The translations under genes and the position numbers were made by a program. A stretch of DNA of 61,034 nt from an uncultured Muribaculaceae bacterium (GTDB lineage: Bacteria > Bacillota_I > Bacilli_A > RF39 > UBA660): NCBI GenBank assembly GCA_964349455.1, contig CAYGGG010000002.1, forward strand, positions 1 to 61,034, given 5' to 3'. The notes beneath the pieces are model-generated. The model saw nothing but the letters and a program-made list of their open reading frames with translations, did no database searches and was not told the origin of the DNA. The stretch's first letter is position 1. Each line of letters opens with the position of its first letter. Shown here piece after piece: positions 24,651 through 52,999 of this stretch.

Positions 24651-26255
24651 ATGATTTTTCGTAAACCATATGCAATCTTTATTAAATATTTTAAATTAAT
24701 CCATTTGGCCTTAGCAACGGCAACGATTTATTTAATTTATCGAATGGTTTTAATTTTGAATTTTTTAAATGAATCAATTACAACTCCGCGATTTAATTTA
24801 AGTGGATCAGTTAATATTGATCTTTTTGATTTTTGGATTTATTTAACGCCCGTTTTGATAATTTTAGTTTCGATTATGGTTTTAAGTGTTTTGGTTTATA
24901 AACAAAAACCCTATCGTTTTTATGCGATTGCTTTAATTGCATTTATTGTTATTTTTTTGTTTGGTTTTTATTTAGCTGATTATTTACAAGTGATGGAAGT
25001 TCGAATTATGCCGGGCCAGAGTTTGAGTTTAGTCCGTGATTTGGTTTTGTTATGTATTGTTATTGAAGCTATTGCGGCGATTAAGTTTTTAATAACGGGA
25101 ATTGGTTTTGATATTAGAAGTTTTGATTTTGGAAAAGATTTAGCGGAACTTGAAATTGATGATATTGATCGTGAAGAATTTGAAGTTGAGGTTAAGGTTG
25201 ATATTAATAAAGCAAAACGAGATGTTTTTCGTAATGTTCGTAGTTTTAAATATGCTTATTATGAAAACAAATTTCGTTATAATGTTGCTATTTTTATGGC
25301 TATTGTAATGCTTTCGTTTGTTCTTTTTAATACTTATCGTAATCGAGTGATTGCTTTAAGCGAGGGCGATTGGTTTGTTGGTCGACAATTAGAGCTAACT
25401 GTTAGGGAAAGTTATTTGACAACAAAAAATTATGCTAATGTTAAAATGATTGACGATACGGTATTGTTAATTTTAAAAATGGATCTTGTTTCAAAAAGTA
25501 ATCTCCCTAAACCTTTGGAAAATGCTTATTTTAGAATTGAAGTGGGAAATTATTCGTTTTATCATTCTAAAAAATATCGCGACAGTTTGTTTGATTTAGG
25601 AATTGTTTATGATGATCAAAAAATTGGTAATGAGAGTCAGTCTTATTTGTTTGTGTTTGAAATTCCAGAGGCTTTTGTTGATCGGTTATTAGTTTTTAAG
25701 TATGTTGATGATTTTCGTTTTGTTAGTAAAAAAAGAGGCCCAGGTATTCAAAATTTTTTCATAGATCCGGTTAGTTTAGATAATAATGATGATATTTATG
25801 TAACAAAACTTGGTGATAACGTTTATTTTCGCGAACCGATTCTGGTTAGTTCCTTAAGTGTTGAAGAATATGAGTTAAAAGAAGAAATAAAATTAGATTA
25901 TCGTTTCTGTATTAGTAGTAATAATTGTTTTATTTCTCATGAATATTTAAGACCGGGTTATTATGGAAATGAGGAAATGGCTATTTTAAGATTAAAGGGT
26001 GATTTTAATTTAGATGAACGAGTTAAGCATCTTAATCTTTCTTATGTTGAATTTCTTCGTTCTTTTGGTAAGTTAGAATATGTTGTAAATGGTCAGAAAA
26101 AGTGGGTTGGGTTTAGTCAAGAAGCAAAGGCGGTTCGTGTTAATACTGGAAAAAATGTTTATTTGGAAGTGCCGAAAGATTTGTTAAAAGCCGAAAAAAT
26201 TGAGTTAGTAGTTAATCTTCGCAATTATACTTATAAACATCTTTTAAAATATTAG
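24651..26255 (+). CDS. Membrane protein (4-5 N-terminal TM helices, ~300-aa extracytoplasmic C-terminal domain), unknown family; first gene of the island
   Basis: AGGAGTGG RBS before ATG 24651. Hydrophobic segments span the first ~240 aa. Confidence 0.55.
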   Translation: MIFRKPYAIFIKYFKLIHLALATATIYLIYRMVLILNFLNESITTPRFNLSGSVNIDLFDFWIYLTPVLIILVSIMVLSVLVYKQKPYRFYAIALIAFIVIFLFGFYLADYLQVMEVRIMPGQSLSLVRDLVLLCIVIEAIAAIKFLITGIGFDIRSFDFGKDLAELEIDDIDREEFEVEVKVDINKAKRDVFRNVRSFKYAYYENKFRYNVAIFMAIVMLSFVLFNTYRNRVIALSEGDWFVGRQLELTVRESYLTTKNYANVKMIDDTVLLILKMDLVSKSNLPKPLENAYFRIEVGNYSFYHSKKYRDSLFDLGIVYDDQKIGNESQSYLFVFEIPEAFVDRLLVFKYVDDFRFVSKKRGPGIQNFFIDPVSLDNNDDIYVTKLGDNVYFREPILVSSLSVEEYELKEEIKLDYRFCISSNNCFISHEYLRPGYYGNEEMAILRLKGDFNLDERVKHLNLSYVEFLRSFGKLEYVVNGQKKWVGFSQEAKAVRVNTGKNVYLEVPKDLLKAEKIELVVNLRNYTYKHLLKY

Positions 26256-26303
26256 TAAATAAGGTATAATGAAAAGAGTAGGCAAGGGTGCAGGTGGGTG
26301 AGC

Positions 26304-26978
26304 ATGAAAAAGATTGATGGGTTATTACTGATAATTGCTTTTTTAGTGTTAATGCCGATGCAAATTAATGCTTTTTGTGATACAATGATTGTGAATAGTG
26401 AAAAGGCTACTTTGAAAAAGATTGCTTCAAATGTTACTTTTAGTACTTTTTATGAAGAAACTGATGATCAACTGGTGTTTAGTATTAGAATAAATAATCT
26501 CGATAAAAGTTTAAAAGTAGTTGATAATAAAACAAAAGAAGAAATTTTTTATGGACTTAATACTAAAGATATGCGTGAGTATATCGTTGGCAATTATCAG
26601 CCCGGTCAATCAGTTCAATTTAATTTTTTTGTACTAGGTAGTGATTGTATTAGTGAAGAAGAAATTTTAATGGTTAGGTATGTTAATCTACCTTATTACA
26701 ACAAATACTATAAAGATCCGCTGTGTGTTGGTTTAAGTAATAATTTAATTTGTCGTAAATGGGCGAATGTTAAATTAGATTATGATGATTTTAAAAATGA
26801 GATTGTGAAACTAAAAGAAGAGGTTAATGAAGAGAATGATAAAGAAGAAGATGATGAAATAGGGTTTATTTCGTTGTTTGAATTAATTAAGGAATATTAT
26901 ATATATTTACTTGGTTTAGGGATATTAGTTGTCGGATATCGAATGTATATGCGAAGAAAAGATGATTTTAAATTATAG
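26304..26978 (+). CDS. Secreted/bitopic protein with a signal peptide, conserved Cys residues and a C-terminal TM anchor
   Basis: MKKIDGLLLIIAFLVLMPMQINA signal sequence. C-terminal YIYLLGLGILVVGYRMYMRRKDD. AGGTGG lies 6 nt before ATG 26304. Confidence 0.55.
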   Translation: MKKIDGLLLIIAFLVLMPMQINAFCDTMIVNSEKATLKKIASNVTFSTFYEETDDQLVFSIRINNLDKSLKVVDNKTKEEIFYGLNTKDMREYIVGNYQPGQSVQFNFFVLGSDCISEEEILMVRYVNLPYYNKYYKDPLCVGLSNNLICRKWANVKLDYDDFKNEIVKLKEEVNEENDKEEDDEIGFISLFELIKEYYIYLLGLGILVVGYRMYMRRKDDFKL

Positions 26979-26987
26979 GAGGTTTTG

Positions 26988-29900
26988 ATGAAAATAAATA
27001 AAAAATATTTAGTAATTATTAGTATATTTTTAATTATGATTTTTCTTAGCCCCATAATTGGTTTTAGTTGGACGGGTCCAATTGATGATTGGATTAGACC
27101 TCCTGGTGATAAAAGATTAACTGGAACAAAGTATGGTCTTAATGATAAATCAAACGCAATTCGAATTTATGTTGTTAAACAAACGGGAAACAATGTAAAA
27201 GTGGTTTCAGCGGTTAAAGATTTTCGTTCGTCAGTTGTTTCTAAGGAAGGACATATTACCCATTATTCGGTTTCTGCTAATGGTTTGGGGACGAGAATTA
27301 ATGGTGATAGTCGGTTGGTGAGCGATGGTAATTACAAGAAATATGTTGAAACAAAGTCATCATATTTTGACAAGGCGCTACCAAAAGTTTTTGTTGATGG
27401 TGGAACACAGGATGTGAAAAAGTTTATTATCGATTTATATGCTGATGAGGGAAATTGTAAACCAAATTGTTTGTCTGAATTTTTAATTAATGTGTTAGGT
27501 GGAATGGATGCTACAACCAAAAGTGATTTTCGTAATTTGAATAATTTTAGTAGTTATTTTATTATCGTCGAACCAGTGCATTATTATTGGCGGATAAGTG
27601 GTGCTCCTGATGCAATTGCTTTTTCTTCAACTGATGGAGCTTTGTATTATAATAATTTTGGAACGGCTTTGTCAGATGTTCGAACAAGAATTTATAATAT
27701 GGCGCCGTTGGCAATTATGAATGTTGATATTCATCAACAATTAAGTGTATTAGATCGAGTGACAATGCCACCATTAAAGCCAGCAATTTATGATCCAGAT
27801 GTTTGTTATTCAGCTTGCTTTTATACAAAAGATGAAATGATTGGTCGTTCTGGATATGGAATTGGATATTTTTATATGAATGACTTTGTTGAAAAAATTC
27901 CACCAGATGACACACCAAAAACTTGTCAAACAATGATTAACCAGTTTCCAAATGCAACTGAATATTGGAAATTTGTTGAAGAATATTTAAATAAAACAAG
28001 TGAACGTTATCAAGGAGATAAATTTAATTGTTGTACTGATTTTGATAATTATATTAAGTCAATTGAAAAAACGAAACCAGAGTCGAAAATTATTATTTCC
28101 TATAAAACAGACTATGAGTTGTATTGCAAATCAAATGTGACACCACCAACGCCAATCCCAGAAGATCCAGATGGAAAAGAATGTCGTTATTCGGTAGCGG
28201 TTTCTTGTCCAGATTGTACCGAAAATCAATCGGGTATAATTAAGGATATTGATGATTGGGATTGTATTTTTGCTAGTGATAAGGTGGCATCGGTTCCGTT
28301 TAAAAATCATTATAATTCAAACCTCAATAATCGTTATTGTAAGGTTTATTGTCGTGAAGAAATGGGCTATGTGTATCCGAAAGAAACATTTACGGTTTAT
28401 GCTGGGTCGCATTTTACCATGGGAGATTTTCCGAGTGATTCATCAACGCTAGTACCAAATTGGGGAAGTGTTGCTTTTCAGGGAACAGCCAATTGTCGTC
28501 CTTCGACTGATCGGGATTTGAAAACTGATAAATTAGCGGGTGATCATGATTACTTAAATATTGATCATGTTCTATTTGCAAAAGATTGGAAAGAATTAAA
28601 TCAAAAATTAGGTGATGCTTGGGATAAGTATCAAGTTGCTGTTTTACAAGATTGGGCAAAAAGTAATGCAAAATTTGATGGGAAAACGTGTGGTTTAGTT
28701 TTTGATGATAGTTATTCAAATAAAGATGGCTGTGTTAACGAGGAAAAAATGTACAAGTGTCCACAAGGGGTACCGGTTGATCGAGGAACTGATCCAAGAA
28801 ATACGGAGTTTAAATGTACCTATACAACCGATGCTAAAGAGGTGTCTGGCCGATATGAATGTTTAAGTGGCGTTTTGGAAGGTTCTTTGTGTCGCCATCA
28901 AGTTGATGCAATATATTCGCATTATCGTTGTTTGGGGACTAGTAATGCTAAGTATGAAAAAGTTAAAACACCAAAGTATGAATATGCGAAAGCAAATATT
29001 AGAGGAAATGAAAGTAGTGGTTCATTTAGTTGGTGTACTGGGCGAAATGATGTAACTTATAGTTGGGAAGATGATTACGGTTCTGCTGGTTATCATCGGC
29101 GGTATGTTATTGATAGTCAGGTAACTAGTTTACGAACTTCAACTGAGTTATATCGTAATGCGGCAAGCACTTTACCTAGTAATTTAATTACTTCACCAAC
29201 GGTTGAAGATAGTAAAAAATTATATGATGATTATTATAATCAGTTGGAAAATCGCTTGCTTCAAATAAGAGCTTGCCAAAGTTTTGAATATAGTTATGAT
29301 CATCTTAGTCCAAAGATGCTAGTTGGATATAAAGATTATAAATATCCAGAACCAAAGGAATTTGAATTAGATTTGGTTGTTACTGAACAAAAAGACACAG
29401 ATTACTTGTTAAAAGGAAAAAAGGTTGATTATTCGACTGCAGATATTGATCGATTTGTTTGTGCTACACCAATTAGTCCAGGGCGGACGGAAAGTTTATT
29501 GATGGTTGGAAGGGCTTTTAATTGTCCGGTTGAAAAGCAAGAGTATCCTAATAATGATTCCTTTTATCATACAAAAGACCGAGTGATTAATTATGAGTTA
29601 AATAAAGATGTTTATCGATATGTTGTAAAACATAGCGAAAAGGGGAAGTTCACGTTTGACTCGGTTTCTTATCATCAAAAACCAAGTAGTGGTAATTTTA
29701 TTGATATTGGTTATGGTAATTTTCCAATTCATTATTATCAAGGGGAAAATTATCCAAGTACAAGTACGGTTTGGTTGCGGCTAGCAAATAGTCCTAGTGA
29801 AAGTTTTGGGTTCAATAATCGGTTTGATAAATTTGTTTTCGGAATGTACAAACCAGCGTTTGTTGATTCTGAATGCATGCGTTATGAGTGTGATTATAAT

Positions 29901-30326
29901 ATTAAATATCGAATTATTCCCCCTGATGATGGTGGACCTACTGAAACAATCGATATTTTGGTTAAATTTAGACCAATTGATCTTGTTGAACCATTCCCTG
30001 GGAATGATGGTTTGGGTAGGATGCCAGGGTGGAATTGGCAAGGTGACCATGTAATTGAGAGTGTGATTGTTAATAATCGTGGTGTTAGTGGAAGTCGGGT
30101 CTATTTTGATGTCGACCCAATGTATACAATTAATTTAAATTTTAGTAATATTTTTGAGATTAGGGGTTATAATAGAGGTAGAGACTATTTTGATTTTAAT
30201 TTAAATTGTCGAACGGGGCTCACTAGCGAAGGAAGACATCGCGAGTGTCAAAGTAGTTTTGTCGATCAATTTGTAACAAGAAATAGTTGTTTGCTTAATT
30301 CATGGGATGGTTGTCATAATTTATAA
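26988..30326 (+). CDS. Giant Cys-rich secreted protein, paralog A (1112 aa), unknown family
   Basis: AGGAGG RBS. N-terminal signal/anchor LVIISIFLIMIFLSPIIG. No LPXTG motif or C-terminal TM. Collinear with 30338-33925. Confidence 0.7.
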   Translation: MKINKKYLVIISIFLIMIFLSPIIGFSWTGPIDDWIRPPGDKRLTGTKYGLNDKSNAIRIYVVKQTGNNVKVVSAVKDFRSSVVSKEGHITHYSVSANGLGTRINGDSRLVSDGNYKKYVETKSSYFDKALPKVFVDGGTQDVKKFIIDLYADEGNCKPNCLSEFLINVLGGMDATTKSDFRNLNNFSSYFIIVEPVHYYWRISGAPDAIAFSSTDGALYYNNFGTALSDVRTRIYNMAPLAIMNVDIHQQLSVLDRVTMPPLKPAIYDPDVCYSACFYTKDEMIGRSGYGIGYFYMNDFVEKIPPDDTPKTCQTMINQFPNATEYWKFVEEYLNKTSERYQGDKFNCCTDFDNYIKSIEKTKPESKIIISYKTDYELYCKSNVTPPTPIPEDPDGKECRYSVAVSCPDCTENQSGIIKDIDDWDCIFASDKVASVPFKNHYNSNLNNRYCKVYCREEMGYVYPKETFTVYAGSHFTMGDFPSDSSTLVPNWGSVAFQGTANCRPSTDRDLKTDKLAGDHDYLNIDHVLFAKDWKELNQKLGDAWDKYQVAVLQDWAKSNAKFDGKTCGLVFDDSYSNKDGCVNEEKMYKCPQGVPVDRGTDPRNTEFKCTYTTDAKEVSGRYECLSGVLEGSLCRHQVDAIYSHYRCLGTSNAKYEKVKTPKYEYAKANIRGNESSGSFSWCTGRNDVTYSWEDDYGSAGYHRRYVIDSQVTSLRTSTELYRNAASTLPSNLITSPTVEDSKKLYDDYYNQLENRLLQIRACQSFEYSYDHLSPKMLVGYKDYKYPEPKEFELDLVVTEQKDTDYLLKGKKVDYSTADIDRFVCATPISPGRTESLLMVGRAFNCPVEKQEYPNNDSFYHTKDRVINYELNKDVYRYVVKHSEKGKFTFDSVSYHQKPSSGNFIDIGYGNFPIHYYQGENYPSTSTVWLRLANSPSESFGFNNRFDKFVFGMYKPAFVDSECMRYECDYNIKYRIIPPDDGGPTETIDILVKFRPIDLVEPFPGNDGLGRMPGWNWQGDHVIESVIVNNRGVSGSRVYFDVDPMYTINLNFSNIFEIRGYNRGRDYFDFNLNCRTGLTSEGRHRECQSSFVDQFVTRNSCLLNSWDGCHNL

Positions 30327-30337
30327 AGGAGGCTTTT

Positions 30338-33300
30338 ATGAAAAAATTTAGCAGAATTATATTAGGAGTTTTTGTTTTAACAATTGGGATATTGTTGTTT
30401 CAAGAAACAATTTTTGCTGGATGGCAGGGCTCAATTGGTGGTACAGGTGGAAATCAAGGAGGAAGTGGGACAACCGCTAATGTTTATATTACAAATAGTG
30501 GTGCACATGCAATGAGAGTGTATATGGTTAAACAAGTCGGCGGCAGTGTAACAGTTGTTTCTAATGTAAAAGATTTTCGAAAACAAGATGGGTGGCAGTA
30601 TAAGACGGTTTTAAATTATTCTACTTCAGGTAACGGCCTTGGGACGAGATTTGGCAGTAATTTGGTAAAAAACAATTCGGGATATAATGCCCACGTTGTT
30701 ACAAAATCTTCTCAGGAGGGAGTTCCGCTTCCCACCTTATATGTAGAGGGGGCAGGACAGGCAGTTCGTAATTTTTTCTTGGCGTTGAATCGTAATCAAA
30801 CTAATTGTAGTCCAAATTGCTTACATAAATTTTTAGTTGAAACACTGGGTGTTAATAGTGAATTGAAAGGTATTTTGGAAAAACAAGGAGATGTTAGTAA
30901 TTATTTTATTGTGGTTGAACCAGTTCATTATTTTTGGAAAAATCCAAGTGGTAATGCAATTGCCTTTTCTTCAACTGATGGTGCTAAATTTTATAAAGAT
31001 TTTGTAAGTGGCGGAATACATAATGTGCAATCGCGAATTTTTAATCATTCCCCGTTGACACTTGTCAATTTAAATTCGAAGCCTTTAAATGCATTATCGG
31101 CAGCTGGGACACCATTAAAACCATGGTGTAGCAATGCAGCTGTTTGTTATAGTAATCGAAGTCAGTATTTTTATACCTCGGCTCAAATGATGGGTAGTTC
31201 TGGATTGGGAATTGGTTATTTATGGGCGAAGGAAACTGATTTGGGTAAGGAATGCGATCCTAAGGATCCAAAAAATCCGTGTGAGGATGATGACGAAGAT
31301 ATTCCTAAAACTTGTGCTTCAATGATGTCAAACATTTCTGATTATAAAGCATATTGGGATTTTGTTAGATGGGGTTTGAATAAAACGGATAAGGATTATA
31401 AGATGAATTGTTGTAGTGATTTTAAAAATTATATTGAAAGGCAAAAAGCAACTAATCCTACTTCTCTAATTTTATCAGCACATCAAGTTGATTATGAGTT
31501 GTATTGTGAAAGTCCGACAACAACAGTCCCGCCACCAACACCAAAAGATCCGCAATGTGCGTATTCGGTTCTGGTTTCATGTCCAGAATGTACTGAGATT
31601 CAATCTGGTGCGATTAAGGATATTGATAATTGGGATTGTATTTTTTTAAGTGATCGTTCGCCAAATGTGCCTGTTCAATTTAGAAATCATTATATTCAAG
31701 CATCGATTGGTGATAATCGTTATTGTAAGGTATATTGTCGTGAAGAAATGGGCTATGTTTTTCCAGAGGAAACATTTACGGTTAAGGCAGGACTTCATTT
31801 TACAATGGGAAGTACTTCTGTTGATACACCATTTGGAATTCCAAACTGGGGGAATGCTGCTTTTCAAGGAACCGCAAATTGTATGCCAGATATAAAGAGA
31901 GATAAGAAAATAGAGCCTTTAGCTGGAATTGATCGAACTAAGACAGGTGATCATGATGATTTACATATTGACCACGTGAAATTTACACATGATTGGAAGG
32001 ATGTTAATATTCGTTTGGGGACGGCTTGGGATAAATGGCAAGTTGGTGTTTTACAAGATTGGACTAAGAATAATGCCCAATATGCCGGACGGGATTCATC
32101 ATGTGGATTGGTTTTTAATGATAGTGAGTCAAGAGCAGCAGGCTGTGTTGATGAAAATAAAATATATTCATGTAGTTATGGGAAACCGAAAGATGGCTCA
32201 TCCAATAATAGTCGAAAAACTATATTTGAATGTCGCCATGTAGTACCCGCTACCGCGCATTATACGTGTTCTTCAGGAACTTTCAATGGGGTCGATTGTG
32301 ATACACAATGCACAAGAATGATTGATTGTTATAATTCTGTCACTAAAAAATGGGAGAAGTGTCCTCAAAATTATAGTTGTTCTGTTGCGGCAACATTTTC
32401 TCATTACACTTGTGATGAACCACAATATGATAAACCATTACCAGGGGATTCTTCTCAATGTTATTATGATTTTACCTCAGATTCAACTAGATGGCAGTGT
32501 AACAGTACAAGCGGTGCATATTATCAAAGAGTGAGAACTCCTTCATATAATTATAATAATCCAAATATACGAGGAAATGAAAGTAGTGGGTCGTATAATT
32601 GGTGTACAATAAGGAGCGATGTTAATTATGATTGGACTAACGATCCGAATACAGCAAGTGGATTTACTCGTCGCTTTGTTTCAAATACTCAGGTGAGTAG
32701 TTTATCGTCTAATACAAATTTATATGATCCCGCTCCAAATACAGCAAGAAGACCGGCAACGAGACCATCTGTTAATTCGTTGCGAAATGCCTATGATGTA
32801 ATTTATCGTGAACGGGAAGGTTATTTGCAACAAATAAGAGCTTGTCAAAATTATGATTATAACTATAATCATTTAAATCCGCAAATGCGAATGGGGTATA
32901 ATGATTTTAAATATCCGTTACCGCCTGATGTTGATTATGCATTAGAATCAAAAATAACCGAAACTTCAGAAATTGATTATCTGGTAAAAGGACAATATGT
33001 CAGTAGTTCATCAGATGTGATTGATCGATTTTCGTGTAATCCACCAACTACACCAGCGACTACTACTAGTTGGCAAACTGTTGGGACGGCTGTTAAATGT
33101 CCAATTACAAAACAAGATTATCCAGATAATGATGCTTTCTTCTATACTAAAGATCGAGTTATTAATTATGAGTTAAATCAAAATATTCATCGTTTTGTTA
33201 TTAAACATAGTGAAAAAGGAAATTTTACTGATGATTCGGTTTCGGTTCACAGAAGACCTGCAACCGGAAATTATATTGACATTGGATATCCAAATTTACC

Positions 33301-33945: not shown

Positions 33946-34359
33946 ATGAAAGAGTCGTTATGGGGGACATTTGTAATTATGTTTGGAATTACTGCTGTGT
34001 TTTTTGTCTTATTGTTTCAAAGAATTGTTACAACGAGTGAACATAATTATCATATATTGAAGGAGGCTACTGAGGGTGCGATGTACGATGCACTTGATTA
34101 TGCTGAATATCGTGCTTATGGAACAGTCCGAATCGATCGTGAAAAATTTGTTGAAAATTTTGTTCGCCGATTTGCTGAGAGCGCGTCATTAACTGATCGA
34201 TATTTTATTGAAATATATGATGTGTTCGAGGAACCACCAAAAGTAAGCATTCAAGTTTCCAGTGTTGAATCCGGAAACCCTGGAACGAATGAACGCTTTG
34301 AATTTAATATTGTGAATCGAATTGATGCAATATTAGAAACGATGTATGTTAATCCATAG
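33946..34359 (+). CDS. TadE/pseudopilin-like protein (N-terminal MKESLWG leader plus hydrophobic helix)
   Basis: MKESLWG-TFVIMFGITAVFFVLLF followed by a ~110-aa soluble domain. It shares the leader pattern with 38100, 38304 and 38774. Confidence 0.45.
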   Translation: MKESLWGTFVIMFGITAVFFVLLFQRIVTTSEHNYHILKEATEGAMYDALDYAEYRAYGTVRIDREKFVENFVRRFAESASLTDRYFIEIYDVFEEPPKVSIQVSSVESGNPGTNERFEFNIVNRIDAILETMYVNP

Positions 34360-40603: not shown

Positions 40604-40626
40604 GAAACTTTGGTTTCTTTTTTTTT
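40602..40626 (+). terminator. Rho-independent terminator ending operon 1
   Basis: AAGAAAC/GTTTCTT 7-bp stem, a 4-nt loop and a T run. Confidence 0.7.
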
Positions 40627-40667
40627 GTAATAATATATTATTTTCTATTTATTATTTAGAAATACTA

Positions 40668-43863: not shown

Positions 43864-44181
43864 TTGAATGAAGGATTTTTAATTCCGGCAAATTCAAAAA
43901 AATCGATATTAATTTTTGGTTTATTTAAGACATTTGACTTGATCTTGTTTAGCATAGGATTAGGGTTAACATTTTTGTTGTTGATAACCGTTCCGATGCA
44001 AGATCTAACATGGTCGGTAATTGCAATAGCACCAGGAATGATTTGTGGTTTTCTGGTATTGCCATTACCTAATTACTATAATGTTCGAACATTTATTATG
44101 AGTGCATGGCGCTTTTATACAATAAGGCAGAAATTTATATGGAAAGGTTGGTGTGTAATTAATGAGCAAGGCAGAGAGTAG
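43864..44181 (+). CDS. VirB3/PrgI-like small two-TM protein
   Basis: TTG start after AGGGGTGA. It is 105 aa with two TM helices and overlaps the start of the VirB4 N-domain ORF. Confidence 0.45.
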   Translation: MNEGFLIPANSKKSILIFGLFKTFDLILFSIGLGLTFLLLITVPMQDLTWSVIAIAPGMICGFLVLPLPNYYNVRTFIMSAWRFYTIRQKFIWKGWCVINEQGRE

Positions 44182-44710
44182 AAGTAAGTATACAAATGAT
44201 TTAATTCCAGTTAAAAATATTACAAATGGAATGATTTATTTGGACAATGGTGAAAAAGTTGCTGGGGTTAAGATAATGCCCAGAAATATTTTCATTTTGG
44301 ATCAAGATTCGCAATATGGAATAATTGTTAATCTAAAAAATGTTTATAATTTAATTGATTATGAATTTTGGGTGATAGTTGCTGATCGTCCGGTAGATAT
44401 TAATGTATATCTATCACAATTGCAATTATTATATAATAATACAAGTGACCCAGTTAAGCGAAAATTAATTGGTGAGGATATTAGTAAGGGGAATTTTTTT
44501 ATGAGTAGTGATGTGGTTGATACTGAATATTTCTTGTTGTTTAAAGAAAGGGACGATGAATTAATTCAAAAAAGAATTAGAACATTAATTACTAGTTTGG
44601 CAAATGCAGGTTTAACTTCATATCAAACAACCAACGATGATTTAAGAATGGTTTTGGATAATTTCTTAAATGCAGGGAGTACGACAGGATTTGGGACGGT
44701 GATTGCATAA
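44162..44710 (+). CDS. VirB4-family ATPase, N-terminal domain as a separate ORF
   Basis: LIPVKNITNGMIYLDNGEKVAGVKIMPRNIFILDQDSQ...FWVIVADRPVDINVYL resembles the N-terminal region of Gram-positive VirB4 proteins (Tn916 Orf16/PrgJ/ConE type). Confidence 0.55.
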   Translation: MSKAESRSKYTNDLIPVKNITNGMIYLDNGEKVAGVKIMPRNIFILDQDSQYGIIVNLKNVYNLIDYEFWVIVADRPVDINVYLSQLQLLYNNTSDPVKRKLIGEDISKGNFFMSSDVVDTEYFLLFKERDDELIQKRIRTLITSLANAGLTSYQTTNDDLRMVLDNFLNAGSTTGFGTVIA

Positions 44711-46512: not shown

Positions 46513-49302
46513 ATGGATGATGAAAAACAAGAAGAGATAGGGGAAGAGTTAGAAGAAAATGATTCACCTAAGCAAGAGGAATTAAGGGTTGACACTAGTG
46601 ATGATACTCAAAGTAGTATAATTCAAAAGGCAACTGAGGCAAAAGAAATCATTGACAAAGCTAAAAAAATAAAGATGGTTGCTGCTGCATTGTCGGCAAT
46701 GTCACCTCTTTTTTTAATATTACTAAAAATAATGCTAGTTTTTGCGATTGCGCTTTTAATTTTAACAACCATTTTATCTTTTGTTGATCGTATTTATATT
46801 GGAATGGACAAAACATATAATTTTTTGAAATATGGAACGGCTATGGAAAGTGAAGATTTGTTTGTTGAAAAATTAAGAGCAGAATACAGGAAATACCATA
46901 CTTTTTCGAATGTTGAAGAAGAATTTGATCTGCCCTTAATTATGGCAACAGTTAATTATGCTCGCGTGATTGAACCAGAAGGACTTAATATTGAACATAT
47001 TGATACATCAATTTCACCAAAAGATACTTGGCAAATGCTTATTCCCGACAATAATGTTCGTTTTTTTTATCACGTGATGCATGATGAATTAGGTGAAATT
47101 TATACATTTAATCCGTTTGAGCGAAAGCTATTAGCACATATGGTTGGATTTAGAGTTGATAAAAAATGTGTTAAAAAACCAAAATTGGGTGCTGGTTTTT
47201 TTAATGATGTCTCTGAATTGGGTTTTGAGGTTGCAAATAGTTTAGAAGATATTACTAAGTTATTAGAAACGGTTAAATTAGAGATGACGGCTCATGATGA
47301 AACATTAAATAAAATTATAAGTTATACCCCATTTTTAAAAAATATTATTAATAAATATGGACCTGCATATACCTTTTTAATTGATATGATGGGCGCGCAA
47401 GATGCAAGTGTCGGTACTAAATTTTGGGAACGTAAAATCGAAGGTTGGGCCGCATCGTTAGACAAACAAAATCCCGCTGCGTTTATTAGTCGAATTCATG
47501 AAGCGTCACAAGAGAGTGAAGTTGTATGTAGTGATGATGAATTTGCCGTTCCGGTCCTAGTTGTTTTTATGGATTATGAATTGTATAAGCAATATTTAAT
47601 TGATTACTTTATTCCACTGTTTTACATTGATTGCAAAAACTGTCCTTATCGAGGTTTAGAAGAAGATGATCCATTTCGCCAATTGGTAATTACAAGAATG
47701 GCAAATGAAATATTTACAATGCGAGATTTGTATCGTGAATTTATTCCAAAGAATATTACTGCTTCGGGCGATATGTTTATTGGAATGGGAGCATTTATTC
47801 TTGATCCACAAAAGTGTTCACCAGCGCAAACTTTAGAAACGATTTTAGATTCGCCTTGTTTTTCCAGTTCTTATGGACCTAGAGGAAGTTTTTGGACACC
47901 AGGAGGAATGACCGGATTTTTTCATCAAGGAATTGATTTTACTCAAGCAGAAGGATCGCCGATTTTTGCTATGGCAAGTGGTAAGGTGGTTGCAAATGGA
48001 TATGGTTTTGTTAGTGGATATGGGTGGCATGTTTATATTGATCATGGTGAAATTGAGGGGAAACATTTTTTAACGCGGTATGCTCATATGGTAAAGCAAA
48101 GTGATTTGAAGGTTAATGATATTGTACATGGTGGCGATTTAATTGGCTACGTTGGAAAAACAGGAAGATCAACTGGGGATCATCTTCATTTTGAAATTCA
48201 TGTTGATGGTAGGCATACCGATCCTATTCCATATTTGCGTGATATTTTAAGCGGAACTTCACAATTTAATAATGGTGGGAATATTCAACATTATTTGATG
48301 TCTGATCATGCGAATGTACCTTATTGTGAATTACCTGATACTTTAGAAACGAATGGACAGTTACCAACTTCTTATGCAATGATTGCACATAGTTTAGTTC
48401 AAAAAACTGAACCAAGAGAAGTGGCAGAATTTATTTGTGAAAAAATGCCGGATAATCGACAAAGTATTATTAATTCGACGTTAGCTTCACAAAAATTTGA
48501 AATATATTCAGAAAAAATTCCCCCAGGCCTTCAATCAATTAGCCAAGCATTGGATGCTGGGGGACAGATATTGGTACATGTAAATGGGGGACCGTTTGAT
48601 CAAAATAAAAAAGGGAACTATTTAGCAATTGTTAAGTATGCAAATGGGCGATACTTGGTACTAGATCCAACAAGCGAATTTAGAACCCAGCCCCAAGGAT
48701 ATCTTGGTAATGATGTTTCAACAAGAATTTTAAACTTTATTGTTTCGGATGATATTTGGGCTTTTACTAGTTCAAGTGCTGGAATTGGTAATCCGGGAGG
48801 AACGCTTACAGCTTTTAATGATAAAGGATGGGCAAATCATTTGGCTGCTGAGGTGAAAAAATCTAAATTAGGATCTTTAAAACCTAAAGATGCAAATCAA
48901 TTTTTTCAAAGGGGAGTGGTTACAAATGATGGTTGGGGGAAAATATTAACAGCAATGTCTTATTTAGAATCAAGCCATCAACCAGGGTTAACGTATGATG
49001 AGGGACCAAAAATAATGGATAGAACAACAGGAAAACCGGCTCTTTCAACAGGATTGTTTCAAATGTCGCAAGGGTCAATTAGAGGATATAAGTTTCCGGG
49101 TTATGAAAAAGTGACAACTAATGATTTAAAAGACCCTTATAAAAATATTTCGATTGCTGTTCAACTTTTGGAACATTGGGTTGAAAAAGATGGATGTATT
49201 TCTTGTAAAGCAGCTAACAGTTGGCGTGGCGGAGCTCGCTATTGGGCGGTGTTAAGAGATGGAAAAGTTGAGACAATAAGAGCAGCGGTGTTAAAAAAAT
49301 AA
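46513..49302 (+). CDS. Membrane-anchored multidomain cell-wall hydrolase (M23 metallopeptidase plus C-terminal lytic-transglycosylase-like domain)
   Basis: An acidic N-terminus and one TM. M23 motifs HQGIDF (~47922) and GDHLHFEIH (~48181). SLT-like YLESS...TGLFQMSQ (~48961-49075). Confidence 0.85.
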   Translation: MDDEKQEEIGEELEENDSPKQEELRVDTSDDTQSSIIQKATEAKEIIDKAKKIKMVAAALSAMSPLFLILLKIMLVFAIALLILTTILSFVDRIYIGMDKTYNFLKYGTAMESEDLFVEKLRAEYRKYHTFSNVEEEFDLPLIMATVNYARVIEPEGLNIEHIDTSISPKDTWQMLIPDNNVRFFYHVMHDELGEIYTFNPFERKLLAHMVGFRVDKKCVKKPKLGAGFFNDVSELGFEVANSLEDITKLLETVKLEMTAHDETLNKIISYTPFLKNIINKYGPAYTFLIDMMGAQDASVGTKFWERKIEGWAASLDKQNPAAFISRIHEASQESEVVCSDDEFAVPVLVVFMDYELYKQYLIDYFIPLFYIDCKNCPYRGLEEDDPFRQLVITRMANEIFTMRDLYREFIPKNITASGDMFIGMGAFILDPQKCSPAQTLETILDSPCFSSSYGPRGSFWTPGGMTGFFHQGIDFTQAEGSPIFAMASGKVVANGYGFVSGYGWHVYIDHGEIEGKHFLTRYAHMVKQSDLKVNDIVHGGDLIGYVGKTGRSTGDHLHFEIHVDGRHTDPIPYLRDILSGTSQFNNGGNIQHYLMSDHANVPYCELPDTLETNGQLPTSYAMIAHSLVQKTEPREVAEFICEKMPDNRQSIINSTLASQKFEIYSEKIPPGLQSISQALDAGGQILVHVNGGPFDQNKKGNYLAIVKYANGRYLVLDPTSEFRTQPQGYLGNDVSTRILNFIVSDDIWAFTSSSAGIGNPGGTLTAFNDKGWANHLAAEVKKSKLGSLKPKDANQFFQRGVVTNDGWGKILTAMSYLESSHQPGLTYDEGPKIMDRTTGKPALSTGLFQMSQGSIRGYKFPGYEKVTTNDLKDPYKNISIAVQLLEHWVEKDGCISCKAANSWRGGARYWAVLRDGKVETIRAAVLKK

Positions 49303-49314: not shown

Positions 49315-50016
49315 ATGAAGAATATGTTTAAAATAGTATTATTATGTTTGATTTTTTTAGGAACTTCTTGTTCTGTTAATTATGATTTAATTGTTACATC
49401 TGATAAGAAATATATTGAAAAATTAGTTGTAACAATGCCAAGAGAAGCTTATTATGAAGATGATAAGCTTGCTGAAAAACAGATTGAAGACTTAATTGAT
49501 GATTTTAAGAATTTGGAACGTGGTGCTAATTTGTATAAATACAATTACCAAATAACGAAAGAATGGGTTTATTTTACGATTAGTCAAAAACATTCTAGTT
49601 TCTTTGGTTATAAAAATTCTTTAATTTATAGTAAATTATTTGAACAAATGGAATTAGTTGAAGAGAACACTTATAAATTAACTGTTAAAGGATATTTGGT
49701 TGATAATGAAGAGGGATTGCCCTTAATATGGGAAAAAGAGATGGCTATAGAAATCCAATTTCATAATGAAGTAATATCTTCCAACGCGAATGAAACAAAT
49801 AATTTTGATAACACATATACGTGGTATTTGGATGAAAATTTAGTTGATAATGGTATTAATGTTGAATTAAGTGACAAAATTAGATATGATGTAGTGGCAA
49901 GGTATTATTTTATGCAAAATATTTTAACAATTGGTTTGGTTACAACTATTACATTATTTGCTGGATTTATTTATTATCGATGGCACAAACAAGAACAAAT
50001 TAGGAATCAATTGTAA
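49315..50016 (+). CDS. Lipoprotein with a C-terminal TM anchor, paralog 1
   Basis: LLCLIFLGTSC lipobox-like sequence and CSVNYDLIVTSDKKYIEK. C-terminal TM ILTIGLVTTITLFAGFIYY. Confidence 0.55.
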   Translation: MKNMFKIVLLCLIFLGTSCSVNYDLIVTSDKKYIEKLVVTMPREAYYEDDKLAEKQIEDLIDDFKNLERGANLYKYNYQITKEWVYFTISQKHSSFFGYKNSLIYSKLFEQMELVEENTYKLTVKGYLVDNEEGLPLIWEKEMAIEIQFHNEVISSNANETNNFDNTYTWYLDENLVDNGINVELSDKIRYDVVARYYFMQNILTIGLVTTITLFAGFIYYRWHKQEQIRNQL

Positions 50017-50028: not shown

Positions 50029-50733
50029 ATGAAATTAAAATTATTGGGTTTATTAATTTTTGTCTTTGTTTTTTGTGGTTGTTCAATTGATTATCATTTG
50101 AAAATTACTAGTGATAAGAAATTTATTGAAGAAGTAATTTTTCGAATTGATCGAGGGGCATATCCTGAAGATGATAAAATCGCCGAAAAAATGATTAAAG
50201 ATGAATTAGATGCATACCAAGAATATGAAGAATACAACCAATATAGTTATAAACTGCGAATTACAAAAGATATTATTTACATCATTATTAATGGCGAACA
50301 TCAGAATATTGAACAATATATGGATTCGCCCCTGTATAAAAATGTATTCCAGTGGGTTGCTGCGTTTGAAGGTAGTACCTATCAATTTGAAACAACTGGA
50401 TCAAGATATGATGTAAATATGGGTGCTGATTCTGATTCATATTTTTATGTTTCGGATTTAAATGTTTATATAAAAACTCATAATAAAGTGATAAAAACAA
50501 ATGCATTAGATGAAAATTATCGAAAAAACGTTTTTCAATGGCAAATTGAAAATAATGATGTTCCTAATAAAATTGAAATCGAACTAGATTATTCGAAAAG
50601 ATATGATATAATAATGCTTGACTTTGTTTTTAATAATTTAATTACTGTTATTTCTTTTACAATTATTATTGGAACGTTAGTTGTCGTTGGTGGATATTTT
50701 ATGATGCAAAATAGATTAAAAAATAAATTATAG
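50029..50733 (+). CDS. Lipoprotein with a C-terminal TM anchor, paralog 2
   Basis: LLIFVFVFCGC lipobox-like sequence and CSIDYHLKITSDKKFIEE. Same length and architecture as 49315-50016. Confidence 0.55.
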   Translation: MKLKLLGLLIFVFVFCGCSIDYHLKITSDKKFIEEVIFRIDRGAYPEDDKIAEKMIKDELDAYQEYEEYNQYSYKLRITKDIIYIIINGEHQNIEQYMDSPLYKNVFQWVAAFEGSTYQFETTGSRYDVNMGADSDSYFYVSDLNVYIKTHNKVIKTNALDENYRKNVFQWQIENNDVPNKIEIELDYSKRYDIIMLDFVFNNLITVISFTIIIGTLVVVGGYFMMQNRLKNKL

Positions 50734-50742
50734 GAGGGTTCT

Positions 50743-52980
50743 ATGAAATTGAAGTTTAAAACTGAAGATAAAGATATTATGATATTTGCTATTTTTTGTG
50801 TTGTTCTTTTTTATATTGTAGCAATTGGATATTTAAATATTTCATTGTTAATTGCTGAAGAAAAAATTCATGGTTTCAATCCTCTCCCAGCTTTTTCTTC
50901 GACAAATTTTCCACCAGTAATGGTTTTCTTTATTGTTTTTTTAATTGTAATTGTTGCTAGTGTATCATCTTATTTTTTTAGAATGGAAAAAGGGATTGGT
51001 TTTGAAATTGGTGCAAAAGATGAAAAAGGATATACAAGATGGGCGACTGAAAAAGAAATGAAAAAACAAACCAAAATGGTGTTACCAACTGCTAAAACAA
51101 GTGAGTATGCCGGGATTCCTTTAATTAATAATGGTCGTGAAATTTGGGTTGATGATGGCGAAGCCCATAGTTTAATAATCGGTTCAACTGGTTCTGGTAA
51201 AACAGCTGGGATTGTTCATCCAATGGTTAAGATTCTTGCTAAAAAGGGAGAGTCAATGATTATTACTGATCCAAAAGGCGAGATTTATGAAGAAAATGGG
51301 GTTATGTTAAAAGAAAAGGGATATAACATTATATTACTAAATTTTCGTAATCCGCAAAGAGGTAATTCTTGGAATCCAATGCAGCTTCCTTATCAATTAT
51401 ATAAAGAGGGTAATCAGGATAAGGCAAATGAGCTTTTAGATGACTTAGCGGTTAATATTTTGTATGAAGAAGTTAAAAATGATGATCCGTTTTGGGAGAA
51501 AACTTCAGCTGATTATTTTGCAGGACTTGCTTTGGGATTGTTTGAGGATGCAAAACCAGAGGAAATAAATTTAAATAGTATTAGTTATATGGCAACTGTT
51601 GGAGAAGAGAAGTCTTTGGGGACAACTTATATTAAAGAGTACTTTAGTCATAAGAGTCAAAAATCAACTTCATATATAAGTGCAAATAGTACTTTGATTG
51701 CACCAACTGAAACAAAGGGTGGGATTTTAGCTGTTTTTCATCAAAAAATGAAAATATTTTCAGCAAGAGAGAATTTAGCTGAAATGCTTTCGCATAGTGA
51801 TTTTGATATGAAAGATATTGGGCGTAAAAAAACAGCTGTATTTTTGCTAATTCATGATGAAAAGAAAACGTATCACCCGTTGATGACAATTTTTATTAAG
51901 CAGTGTTATGAAACTTTAATTGATGTTGCTCAAGAAATGGGAGGGAAACTAGCTTTTCGTACTAATTTTATTTTAGATGAGTTTGCCAATATGCCCCCGT
52001 TAAAAGACGCAACAACGATGGTAACAGCAGCACGAAGTCGTTTGATTCGGTTTAATTTTTTTATTCAAAATTATGCTCAATTAACTCAAGTATATGGTAA
52101 AGAGAATGCTGATACGATAAAGGGCAATTGTGGGAACACGGTTTATTTAATTAGTAGTGAGCTAAGCGCCCTAGAAGAAATTAGTAAGCTTTGTGGCGAA
52201 TCAAAATCAAAGGAAAAAGATAAGACCGATTCACGTCCATTAATTACAGTGAGTGATTTACAAAGGCTAAAATTGTGGGAAGTGCTTATTATGCGGGATC
52301 GAATGATGCCATTTAAAACAAAATTTACGCCAAATTTTAAAATTGATTGGGGCTACGAAACTGATAAAGCAGAGTATATTACACGGATTAAAAATCCAAT
52401 TGATGTTTTTGATATAAAAATGTTTGTTGAAAACAAAAGAAAATCATTGTTTGAAACGGCTACCAAAGCACTAGATGATAAACCAAAACCAATGGCATCG
52501 AATGCAAAACCAGAGTTGGATTTGGATGCTTTAATTCAAAGAATGGATCAAAAGATTGCTGAACTTGAAAAAGAAGAACTTGAAAAAACGAAACAAGGAA
52601 AGGGACAAAGAGCGATTGCAATTAGTGATAAAAAGGACGAAAAACTTCCTTTTGAAAAAGAATCTGAAATTGTTAAAGACGATATATTCATTGTAAATGA
52701 AGAACCCGTTGTAAAAGAAGAACCAAAGATAGAAGTAAAAATACCGGTGAAAGAAGAAATAAAGGTAGAAGTAAAACCACTAGTGAAGGAAGAACCGAAA
52801 ATGGAAATAAAACCGCCAGTGGTTGCTAAACCTGAGGAAAAAGTAAAACCAAAAATCGATTTAACTGATTTTGATGAGGAAGATGGTAATTTAGAGAAAC
52901 ATGAAGAAAATATTAAAACTGAGAAAAAAGGATTTATTACCGATGATCAATTTTTTGATGATTTCTTTGGTGATGAATAG
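50743..52980 (+). CDS. VirD4/TraG-family type IV coupling protein with a K/E/P-rich repetitive C-terminal tail
   Basis: Two N-terminal TMs. Walker A IIGSTGSGKTAG (~51181-51207) and Walker B FILDEFANMP, followed by GNCGNTVYL. Confidence 0.85.
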   Translation: MKLKFKTEDKDIMIFAIFCVVLFYIVAIGYLNISLLIAEEKIHGFNPLPAFSSTNFPPVMVFFIVFLIVIVASVSSYFFRMEKGIGFEIGAKDEKGYTRWATEKEMKKQTKMVLPTAKTSEYAGIPLINNGREIWVDDGEAHSLIIGSTGSGKTAGIVHPMVKILAKKGESMIITDPKGEIYEENGVMLKEKGYNIILLNFRNPQRGNSWNPMQLPYQLYKEGNQDKANELLDDLAVNILYEEVKNDDPFWEKTSADYFAGLALGLFEDAKPEEINLNSISYMATVGEEKSLGTTYIKEYFSHKSQKSTSYISANSTLIAPTETKGGILAVFHQKMKIFSARENLAEMLSHSDFDMKDIGRKKTAVFLLIHDEKKTYHPLMTIFIKQCYETLIDVAQEMGGKLAFRTNFILDEFANMPPLKDATTMVTAARSRLIRFNFFIQNYAQLTQVYGKENADTIKGNCGNTVYLISSELSALEEISKLCGESKSKEKDKTDSRPLITVSDLQRLKLWEVLIMRDRMMPFKTKFTPNFKIDWGYETDKAEYITRIKNPIDVFDIKMFVENKRKSLFETATKALDDKPKPMASNAKPELDLDALIQRMDQKIAELEKEELEKTKQGKGQRAIAISDKKDEKLPFEKESEIVKDDIFIVNEEPVVKEEPKIEVKIPVKEEIKVEVKPLVKEEPKMEIKPPVVAKPEEKVKPKIDLTDFDEEDGNLEKHEENIKTEKKGFITDDQFFDDFFGDE
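52699..52856 (+). repeat. Imperfect in-frame repeats encoding VKEEPK(I/M)E(V/I)K-like units
   Basis: EEPVVKEEPKIEVKIPVKEEIKVEVKPLVKEEPKMEIKPPVVAKPEEKVKPK. Coordinates are approximate. Confidence 0.6.
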
Positions 52981-52999
52981 TGCTTTTAAGCACTTTTTT
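52979..52999 (+). terminator. Terminator ending the island
   Basis: AGTGCTT/AAGCACT inverted repeat overlapping the stop codon, followed by T6. Confidence 0.6.

Follow-up and report, generated by a model that had tools for sequence, protein, structure and literature searches.

The window analysed here, the whole 61-kb stretch of DNA (61,034 nucleotides), comes from an uncultured bacterium of the order RF39 and carries a ~28-kb block of 23 co-directional open reading frames (ORFs; g01 to g23) in which an ATPase and pilin-like gene module precedes a Gram-positive-type type IV secretion system (T4SS). The block occupies positions 24651-52980 of the + strand, between an HD-domain gene (end 24602) and rmuC (start 53002), and its intergenic spacing ranges from -20 to +96 nt. 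The window has a low G+C content (27-36%) and a strongly positive GC skew all along, and carries almost all of its sizeable ORFs on the + strand. A preliminary description of this DNA had counted 25 ORFs in the block; our recount gives 23. The other layout features that it reported are confirmed: the ORFs are tightly packed and co-directional, polC-hemW-HD flanks the block on the left and rmuC-GT2-rnr-smpB-tmRNA on the right, and the motifs GETGSGKTE, ILLSEVR, STIHA, GTSGSGKST, VDEAH, GSTGSGKTAG and LDEFANMP are all found in the translations. The block also starts at 24651, as proposed: orthologues of g01 begin at the matching methionine, in the context MI(F/L)RKPYA, and the start in the ORF call is a TTG at 24624. 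The features are as follows.

24651-26255, + strand: g01, polytopic membrane protein with ~5 N-terminal transmembrane (TM) segments and a large C-terminal domain; first gene of the block
26298-26978, + strand: g02, protein with a signal peptide and a C-terminal membrane anchor; no family match
26985-30326, + strand: g03, giant secreted Cys-rich protein A (1113 aa, 32 Cys); probable adhesin
30338-33925, + strand: g04, giant secreted Cys-rich protein B (1195 aa, 40 Cys)
33946-34359, + strand: g05, DUF5411 protein, minor-pilin-like (PF17424, 171 bits); leader MKESLWG, then a hydrophobic helix
34378-35247, + strand: g06, CpaB/RcpC-SAF-like protein (RcpC 19 bits, SAF 19.5 bits, TIGR03177 E 1e-6, all below cut-off)
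35250-36347, + strand: g07, CpaF/TadA/VirB11-family secretion ATPase (PF00437, 95.5 bits)
36360-37265, + strand: g08, polytopic membrane protein at the TadB position
37265-38047, + strand: g09, polytopic membrane protein at the TadC position
38100-38270, + strand: g10, 56-aa major-pilin candidate, beginning MKEAAG and continuing EANLTVVAIILIGVIAAV, with a C-terminal Cys pair
38301-38771, + strand: g11, minor-pilin-like protein with an M(K/R)E..G leader; weak match to the DUF4320 protein of plasmid pBMB67 (6 bits)
38774-39229, + strand: g12, minor-pilin-like protein; its profile matches the pBMB67 DUF4320 protein (13 bits)
39226-40239, + strand: g13, cytoplasmic protein, possibly a degenerate ParA/TadZ-like protein (unproven)
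40283-40603, + strand: g14, VirB2/PrgF-like two-helix membrane protein
40602-40628, + strand: hairpin (7 bp; stem-loop 40602-40619) followed by a U9 run, between g14 and g15; possible terminator/attenuator
40700-41818, + strand: g15, secreted Cys-rich domain fused to a C-terminal VirB2-like two-helix domain
41827-43845, + strand: g16, VirB6-like polytopic protein with a Pro-rich tail
43864-44181, + strand: g17, VirB3/PrgI-like protein (105 aa)
44162-44710, + strand: g18, N-terminal domain of VirB4 as a separate ORF (TraC-like, 182 aa)
44710-46494, + strand: g19, ATPase domain of VirB4 (594 aa; AAA_10, P-loop_TraG, DUF87)
46513-49302, + strand: g20, cell-wall hydrolase, VirB1 equivalent (M23 92 bits, SLT 21.5 bits)
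49315-50016, + strand: g21, lipoprotein with a C-terminal TM segment and an invariant lipobox G-C
50029-50733, + strand: g22, lipoprotein, paralogue of g21, likewise with the invariant lipobox G-C
50743-52980, + strand: g23, VirD4 coupling protein of the CD1115 family with a repetitive acidic/lysine-rich tail
53002-54114, + strand: rmuC (PF02646, 193 bits), flanking gene, syntenic in most relatives and outside the demonstrated system

The block encodes a VirB4 ATPase, a VirD4 coupling protein and a wall hydrolase, three of the components by which Gram-positive T4SSs of the mating-pair formation class FATA (MPF_FATA) are recognized. All three had been named in the preliminary description, the hydrolase as an M23+SLT protein, and all three are supported by curated models. 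VirB4 (g19) matches AAA_10 and P-loop_TraG and scores 353 bits against NCBIfam VirB4_plasma (cut-off 590) and 165 bits against CD1110. VirD4 (g23) scores 171 bits against PF02534 and 299 bits against conju_CD1115, which is above the cut-off of 250. The N-terminal domain of VirB4, encoded separately by g18, scores 45 bits against VirB4_plasma, and its orthologues match PF26593; orthologues of g17 match PF26592 (PrgI_like) weakly, and the topology and position of g17 fit a VirB3-like protein. Together, g17, g18 and g19 align consecutively to residues 4-83, 96-276 and 294-891 of the VirB4 model of mycoplasma integrative and conjugative elements (ICEs), a family in which the same three parts are fused into one 894-aa protein. 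The three-ORF VirB4 (43864-46494) is kept in all RF39 loci compared here (L005-L091, where L and a number denote an individual locus) and on the Bacillus thuringiensis plasmid pBMB67 (L092 18910-21824). Pseudogenisation of VirB4 was rejected because of this conservation.

Relatives of the block were collected by scanning a one-genome-per-species collection with VirB4, which yielded 464 matching stretches, the best 80 of which were kept. These best 80 show 77-83% identity and all derive from metagenome-assembled genomes (MAGs) of uncultured Bacilli, Tenericutes or Mollicutes from animal guts and digesters. They include Ca. Faecisoma (GTDB CAG-878) and Ca. Fimihabitans, which belong to the GTDB order RF39 (PMC8035907), an order filed under Mycoplasmatota in the NCBI taxonomy. 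The ATPase g07 has thousands of relatives; the top 120 are 78-87% identical, and the named ones among them are MAG proteins of a "Bacilli bacterium" or "Mollicutes bacterium". Across RF39 relatives, g07 identity ranges from 75 to 84%. Six of the cluster-bearing MAGs (L009, L013, L024, L025, L035 and L038) are deposited as "uncultured Muribaculaceae bacterium", which looks like mislabelling.

Gene order is identical across the mapped RF39 loci. The minor-pilin gene g11 and g13 lie directly upstream of the T4SS genes in 60 of the 64 loci with enough upstream sequence, and VirD4 lies downstream of VirB4 in 67 of 68. The linkage of the two modules, a central claim of the preliminary description, is thus real and conserved, not accidental. 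On the right, rmuC follows VirD4 in 52/63 loci, and rnr-smpB come next where the sequence reaches. In relatives, an ORF of ~96-99 aa usually lies between VirD4 and rmuC, and the one tested (L011 17815-18114) is rhodanese-like; the corresponding gap in the window measures only 21 nt (52981-53001). To the left of the block, five loci have ScpA-ScpB and two have HD-CinA, as against hemW-HD in the window, and g01 heads the block in L005-L008 and L089-L091 as well.

The two ATPases, VirB4 and g07, are better conserved than the flanking genes. Median identity to the window is 79% for VirB4, 80% for g07 and 72% for g08, compared with 62% for rmuC, 56% for rnr and 63% for smpB, and drops to 25-37% in exposed surface parts. 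Across pairs of loci, the identity of block proteins varies together with that of rmuC (Spearman 0.33-0.56). The high ATPase identity could in principle reflect gene flow within the order, which is argued against by the divergence of the surface components and by the correlation with the flank.

The window and the ~20-kb loci were searched for DNA-processing genes. No match to relaxase, recombinase or transposase families was found among the 23 block proteins, the flanking genes and the ten upstream window ORFs scanned. Tblastn with the MobP3 relaxase of pBMB67 and with the replication-relaxation protein of a Priestia plasmid gave no match in the window or in ~90 loci, and a scan of viral contigs with the ATPase g07 was likewise negative. 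The borders of the block carry no att-like or inverted repeats. The lack of a relaxase, recombinase, DDE transposase and border repeat, which had already been noted, therefore holds for the window. The marks of a self-transmissible element, i.e., a relaxase with oriT, an integrase or transposase with repeats, or a plasmid replicon, are absent from the regions searched, and the genomic context is chromosomal.

The block had also been described as an island between housekeeping genes with a raised G+C content. The G+C content is indeed higher inside (32.5%, versus 28.9% and 30.2% in the flanks), but it carries no foreign-DNA signal, since the excess is confined to codon positions 1 and 2 and the G+C content at third codon positions (GC3) is the same as outside (0.213 versus 0.205). 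A recently acquired ICE or island, the relaxase and integrase of which lie just outside the block or are too divergent to be recognized, would account for the resemblance of all components to conjugation genes, for the ~3 points of additional G+C and for the several unannotated proteins. It was rejected, and we consider it extremely improbable: the same block and right flank occur in most species-level genomes examined, GC3 is native, no att-like repeats are found, the relaxase and recombinase searches described above were negative, and the nearest plasmid VirB4 is just 29% identical. RF39-wide inheritance, a conserved right flank, left flanks that are conserved within lineages and a native codon composition are not those of an island.

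The closest plasmid-borne VirB4 proteins are encoded by B. thuringiensis plasmids, with 29% identity at best. The T4SS genes of one of these plasmids, pBMB67, encode MobP3, VirD4 (CD1115), a small protein, TrbL, PrgI, a 227-aa protein and VirB4. Farther along, the same transfer region encodes an 851-aa protein, a DUF5411-like protein, a SAF/RcpC protein, an AAA_31 ATPase, a T2SSE ATPase, membrane proteins of 305 and 244 aa, an 89-aa protein and a DUF4320 protein. Profiles built from RF39 orthologues were compared with pBMB67; the target database holds 20 proteins, so bit scores were used instead of E-values. The comparison gave eleven one-to-one matches, seven of them at 37 bits or more:

VirB4 and the DUF87 VirB4 of pBMB67: 293 bits
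VirD4 and VirD4 (CD1115): 284 bits
g07 and the T2SSE ATPase: 124 bits
g06 and the SAF protein: 105 bits
g18 and the 227-aa protein: 72 bits
g09 and the 244-aa protein: 43 bits (hhalign 96%)
g08 and the 305-aa protein: 37 bits (hhalign 85%)
g05 (DUF5411) and a 134-aa protein: 18.5 bits
g17 and PrgI: 17.8 bits
g12 and the DUF4320 protein: 13 bits
g13 and the AAA_31 ATPase: 10.6 bits

The same ATPase module is present on a Priestia koreensis plasmid near a coupling protein, with no VirB4 within 20 kb; a 279-aa protein of this plasmid matches g09 with 56 bits. The HD-domain gene at the left border of the RF39 block was considered as a member of the system and dropped, as it is unrelated to the HD gene of the Priestia cluster. 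In pAW63, the same gene run surrounds the "VirB11" gene CDS22, and a 1416-aa surface protein is encoded ahead of the run (PMC1196294). The name "VirB11" recurs in a 2022 review on conjugation in Bacillus, which does not mention a pilus, and we found no description of the plasmid module as a pilus in the literature searched.

RF39 and the transfer regions of pBMB67, pAW63, pXO2 and pBT9727 (pBMB67 as examined here, the others as published) thus have both modules together. RF39 and pBMB67 also share a separate ORF for the VirB4 N-domain and a large surface protein ahead of the ATPase module. In contrast to the RF39 block, the plasmid systems have a relaxase beside VirD4 (MobP3 on pBMB67); the RF39 block is chromosomal, relaxase-less and order-wide, its two modules occur in the reverse order, and identity to the plasmid proteins is low (29% for VirB4, 25-33% for the ATPase). 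The premise that Tad-like modules and Gram-positive T4SSs are always separate does not hold for pBMB67, in which both occur in one transfer region, or for pAW63, which has the same layout. The linkage of the two modules is real, older than RF39 and under-described.

Gene content, conservation, synteny, homology to plasmids and the local absence of DNA-processing genes make it probable, in our judgement, that the block descends from a pBMB67-type Gram-positive conjugation system, is fixed in the chromosome and inherited vertically, and is conserved across RF39. Both modules already exist together on conjugative plasmids; on this reading, RF39 has a domesticated, order-wide chromosomal version with a CpaF/VirB11-type filament module. 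We found no description of the RF39 cluster in the literature searched.

An adhesive Tad-like pilus and a T4SS that work independently and have stayed neighbours by descent would also fit part of the data. The preliminary description had placed a terminator and a promoter between g14 and g15, dividing the block into two transcription units. The hairpin, the U9 run and a promoter-like TGATATAAT at ~40668 are all present, but the hairpin is weak (-5.8 kcal/mol, z -2.2), and a consensus terminator scanner made no call there. In L033, L049 and L076, the pilin and ATPase genes lie apart from the T4SS genes, which in L033 and L049 stand without neighbouring pilus genes, and the DUF5411/CpaF systems of Clostridia have been described without mention of T4SS genes (PMC9523054). 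We nevertheless regard independence as improbable, as the linkage is kept across RF39 and on pBMB67 and the pilus-type module of the Priestia plasmid lies near a coupling protein. Moreover, in L094 the TadC-position gene is separated from the pilin gene by an insertion (11913-15033) of a small ORF and of genes for a PemK-family toxin and a YfhO-family membrane protein; the pilin, minor-pilin and g13 genes stay next to the T4SS genes, which suggests that the two parts are coupled. The lack of a nearby ATPase gene in 12 loci was rejected as evidence for independence, since at least one of these cases is this 3.4-kb PemK/YfhO insertion. The insertion site, the junction of g09 and the pilin gene, is also where other lineages differ in their upstream genes.

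The composition of the ATPase and pilin-like module was analysed gene by gene. The T2SSE family membership of g07, previously described as a secretion ATPase with TadA/CpaF/VirB11 motifs, is borne out (PF00437, 95 bits). Among subfamily models, g07 scores 106 bits against VirB11, 96 bits against the TadA family, 88 bits against TrbB and 82 bits against ComGA; the VirB11, TadA and TrbB values are far below the respective cut-offs. The protein g06, previously called SAF/CpaB-like, falls short of the curated models, but its family profile strongly matches the SAF proteins of pBMB67 and of the Priestia plasmid (117 bits in the latter). In both plasmids, homologues of the DUF5411 protein g05 precede the SAF protein; DUF5411 co-occurs with CpaF/PilC in Clostridia (PMC9523054).

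Other assignments made for this module are unconfirmed. The two membrane proteins g08 and g09, described as T2SSF-like platform proteins, have no Pfam, NCBIfam or PDB-sequence match, even when family profiles, including a broadened g08 family, are used, and distant full-length relatives of g08 have no T2SSF match in Pfam. When the g08 profile was run with HMMER exhaustively against 1.84 billion representatives, only 292 proteins were retrieved, most of which are fragments. An AlphaFold2 (AF2) model of g08, based on a shallow alignment of 65 sequences (pLDDT 67, pTM 0.49), returned nothing below E=1 in a Foldseek search against PDB, and hhalign detected no paralogy between g08 and g09. The size, topology and position of the two proteins are consistent with TadB/TadC platform proteins. 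The only tie of g08 to T2SSF is indirect: g08 is homologous to a Priestia plasmid protein (hhalign 94.7%) that bears the RefSeq name "type II secretion system F family". The supposedly TadZ-like protein g13, 48-62% identical across relatives, has no Pfam, NCBIfam or PDB-sequence match; its similarity to the AAA_31 ATPase of pBMB67 is weak (hhalign 5%), hhalign against E. coli MinD (approximate query sequence) gave no match, and a single-sequence AF2 model (pLDDT 33) is unusable.

A pilin-like and three pseudopilin-like proteins had been named as parts of the Tad/Flp-type module. Neither g10 nor the pseudopilins match curated Flp or TadE models, including those of Pfam, or PDB sequences, and the likeness found is to DUF5411 and, weakly, to DUF4320. 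The proteins g05, g10, g11 and g12 all open with M(K/R)E..G and continue with a hydrophobic helix of ~20 residues, an arrangement similar to a short prepilin leader. In an alignment of 24 orthologues of g10, the MKE..GEAN(L/M)TV leader and the helix are invariant. The conserved Gly6 is followed by EANLTV and the hydrophobic helix, with neither Glu at +5 nor Tyr at +6, so that g10 lacks the Flp processing motif G/xxxxEY. No A24 prepilin peptidase (TadV/CpaA) came up among the block proteins or the remaining ORFs of the window that were scanned, a set that excludes about nine small ones in the flanks.

Upstream of this module, g01 has no Pfam or NCBIfam match, and g02 is kept in position in relatives (208-227 aa). 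The giants g03 and g04 are tandem paralogues with ~47-52% protein identity (26985-33925); the relatives examined have a single giant of 864-1075 aa with 28-37% identity, and only the C-terminal ~120 aa are well conserved. No Pfam or PDB match was obtained for g03 or g04, a Pfam search with eight giants returned nothing, and a homologue search with g04 recovered only g04 itself, its paralogue and one weak match. The position of g03 matches that of the 851-aa protein of pBMB67 and of an Ig-like 993-aa protein of the Priestia plasmid. The idea that the giants are secreted cargo finds no support; a role as adhesins seems more likely, by analogy with the large surface proteins encoded ahead of this module on the plasmids.

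The T4SS part appears to contain pilin-like components of its own. The g14 profile matches residues 276-357 of g15 (28.5 bits, whole protein), and g14 has a conserved hairpin loop, FGMLDLGKAV..QKEDEIKKGQ. Weak NCBIfam matches link g14 to the N-terminal part of a mycoplasma ICE membrane protein (Mbov_0396 family) and g15 to the pilin-like Mbov_0395 family (12.5 bits, cut-off 40). In addition, PF18895 (T4SS_pilin) is matched weakly in L011 by the protein at the g15 position and in L076 by proteins upstream of VirB6. The relatedness of g14 to the C-terminus of g15 and the weak T4SS_pilin matches nearby therefore indicate that the T4SS module has its own VirB2/PrgF-like proteins. The idea that T4SSs of Gram-positive bacteria have no pili, on which the preliminary description relied, is itself under revision following a preprint on PrgF/VirB2-like proteins (10.64898/2025.12.18.695078). 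The topology and position of g16 agree with its earlier assignment as VirB6-like, but its scores of 22 bits for TrbL_4 (cut-off 27), 42.7 bits for Mbov_0396 (cut-off 70) and 39 bits for MMCAP2_0566 are all below cut-off. The lipoproteins g21 and g22, which are candidate VirB8-like proteins, have no Pfam, NCBIfam or PDB-sequence match. In the wall hydrolase, position and N-terminal part are constant, while the catalytic domains vary by lineage (M23+SLT, SpoIID+CHAP or CHAP alone); orthologues with other catalytic domains occur at L036 11806-14340 and L072 11812-13638. Retention of the hydrolase with domain swaps is consistent with these organisms having a cell wall. Two repeat tracts occur in the module: in-frame 12-nt tandem repeats encoding a Pro/Ser/Thr-rich stretch in the tail of g16 (43727-43787), and three in-frame 36-nt units encoding VKEEPK-type repeats in the VirD4 tail (52711-52818).

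Several known systems resemble parts of the RF39 block. Tad/Flp (type IVc) pili likewise have a CpaB-like protein, an ATPase, two membrane proteins, a small pilin and several pilin-like proteins in order. Firmicutes DUF5411-CpaF-PilC operons (Roseburia, Ruminococcus, Eubacterium) share DUF5411 with the block (PMC9523054), and a Tad-like cluster of TANB77 likewise has components recognizable by structure only (PMC11680825). Unlike Tad/Flp systems, the RF39 block has no T2SSF, Flp or TadE model match, no G/xxxxEY motif and no prepilin peptidase within it, and its ATPase scores are alike for VirB11 and TadA. A type IV filament occurs beside a T4SS, where it serves mating-pair formation, in R64/IncI (thin pilus), TP114 and PAPI-1 (PMC12102498; PMC9045228; PMC12857230). 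These filaments are type IVb pili of diderms, encoded by mobile elements with relaxases, and offer an analogy only.

In the mechanism that we propose from homology and gene order, the ATPase g07 would work with the membrane proteins g08 and g09, the CpaB/SAF protein g06 and g13, and these proteins would assemble the 56-aa pilin g10, together with the minor pilin-like proteins g05, g11 and g12, into a short filament. The giants g03 and g04, which are Cys-rich and evolve fast, would act with g01 and g02 as adhesins for target cells, and the hydrolase g20 would open the cell wall. The translocon would consist of the VirB2-like g14/g15, the VirB6-like g16, the VirB3-like g17, the split VirB4 (g18+g19) and the lipoproteins g21/g22, and VirD4 (g23) would feed a cytoplasmic substrate into it. 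Such an integrated filament-plus-translocon apparatus, already envisaged in the preliminary description, is plausible, but its filament is hypothetical.

Retention of VirD4 argues for export of a cytoplasmic substrate, and the lack of a relaxase in cis argues against ordinary self-transfer. Our first guess for the cargo is DNA that passes between related cells without a cis-encoded relaxase, by analogy with chromosomal transfer in mycoplasmas. This guess is based on the absence of a relaxase, oriT or recombinase linked to the block and on the closest curated T4SS families. The mycoplasma ICEs (ICEA/MICE) provide the closest curated families for VirB4 and the VirB6-like protein, with weaker matches for the pilin-like proteins, and mediate T4SS-dependent, relaxase/oriT-independent and location-independent exchange of chromosomal DNA (PMC6030558, PMC12857230). 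The RF39 proteins stay below the equivalog level of the MICE families (353 versus 590 bits for VirB4, 42.7 versus 70 for Mbov_0396, and 12.5 versus 40 for Mbov_0395). Unlike the RF39 block, MICEs have a fused VirB3-VirB4, neither a wall hydrolase nor a CpaF-type module, and a DDE transposase with inverted repeats.

A DNA-uptake (competence) machine, in which the filament captures DNA and the T4SS imports it, as in ComB of Helicobacter or Ced/Ted of archaea, would agree with the failure to find a relaxase, with the 82 bits of g07 against ComGA and with the synteny of the recombination gene rmuC, and T4SS-based import has precedents (PMC12857230). ComB has no VirD4, however, whereas VirD4, a receptor for cytoplasmic export substrates, is kept in 67/68 RF39 loci, and the giant adhesin-like proteins point to cell contact instead of the capture of free DNA. 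Uptake is highly improbable on this evidence.

A partner-dependent lifestyle, in which filament and translocon attach the small-genome RF39 cell to another cell and deliver effectors or exchange molecules, is suggested by the Patescibacteria. These uncultured bacteria with small genomes carry an MPF_FATA-derived T4SS that, like the RF39 block, is chromosomal, lineage-wide and relaxase-less and has VirB2-like pilins, and their T4SS and pilin array are essential for epibiotic growth (PMC12102498; PMC12857230). The likeness is one of T4SS class and published description, and there are differences: the Patescibacteria are another phylum, no CpaF-type module is reported in their cluster, and their type IV pilus genes are separate. 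RF39 is itself an uncultured clade with reduced genome sizes (PMC11680825), its ATPases are under very strong purifying selection, and its surface proteins diverge fast, as expected for partner recognition. On the other side, no effector candidates or secretion signals were identified, VirD4 belongs to CD1115, a conjugal transfer protein family in NCBI naming, the nearest curated T4SS families come from conjugative elements, and we have no evidence for RF39 epibionts. We hold this alternative, the strongest competitor of DNA exchange, to be rather unlikely, and nothing in the present analysis discriminates between exchange of DNA and exchange of proteins or other molecules with partner cells.

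Descent from a pBMB67-type conjugation system, with the machine proposed above, remains the reading that we prefer, and several points weigh against it. The two parts may be separable, given their non-adjacency in a few lineages (L033, L049 and L076), and within-order gene flow is a second possible source of the high ATPase identity. A relaxase could lie elsewhere in these genomes, beyond the window and the ~20-kb loci. The platform, TadZ and pilin assignments find no support in curated models, the window ORFs scanned include no prepilin peptidase, and the function and substrate of the machine are deduced from homology and gene order.

RF39 is prevalent in human and animal guts and is uncultured. 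A 28-kb machine the ATPases of which are better conserved than rnr and smpB is likely to be central to RF39 biology, and it might explain the dependence of RF39 on other cells or its mode of gene exchange. If our reading is true, RF39 provides another chromosomal T4SS that was kept without a relaxase and co-opted, beside the phylum-wide case of Patescibacteria. A CpaF/VirB11-family ATPase and pilin-like genes are stably coupled to VirB4/VirD4 in monoderms, on a B. thuringiensis plasmid and on the RF39 chromosome; a 2025 review states that Gram-positive T4SSs lack VirB11 homologues. We propose only tentatively that RF39 depends order-wide on a conjugation machine that has been domesticated and has a type IV filament of its own. 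It would be used either for "sexual" exchange of chromosomal DNA without a relaxase, which would make it the equivalent, in cells with a wall, of mycoplasma chromosomal transfer, or as an obligate conduit to partner cells as in Patescibacteria; in both cases the CpaF/VirB11-type module would be an integral, previously unrecognised part of a Gram-positive T4SS class. Genetically tractable Bacillus plasmids offer a direct route to the role of the module.

Some RF39 loci depart from the common arrangement. Housekeeping genes lie directly upstream of the pilin/T4SS part, or of the T4SS part, in L045 (1123-3267), L033 (1532-5099) and L049, where the ATPase part is displaced or lost; the upstream genes encode Tex in one of these lineages and NusA and IF-2 in the others. 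In Acholeplasma sp. CAG:878 (L047 2272-3507), a second, short VirD4-like gene (411 aa) and a gene for a Big_3_2 surface protein lie upstream of the minor-pilin genes. Firmicutes bacterium CAG:884 (L076 573-6689) has a divergent cluster in which several proteins encoded upstream of VirB6 carry C-terminal T4SS_pilin-like domains; its hydrolase measures 1419 aa, and no VirD4 is found within 10 kb downstream. In L004 (GCA_900198705.1, FZPS01000142.1, 1.36 Mb), the giant-DUF5411-CpaB-ATPase part and the rest of the cluster, which begins with the TadB-position gene, have opposite orientations. This reflects either a real inversion or a misassembly.

Far upstream of the block, positions 970-5946 of the window encode a UvrD/PcrA-like helicase (713 aa), followed by proteins of 633 and 269 aa that have no Pfam match. 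The gene for the 633-aa protein has an unusually low GC3 (0.12).

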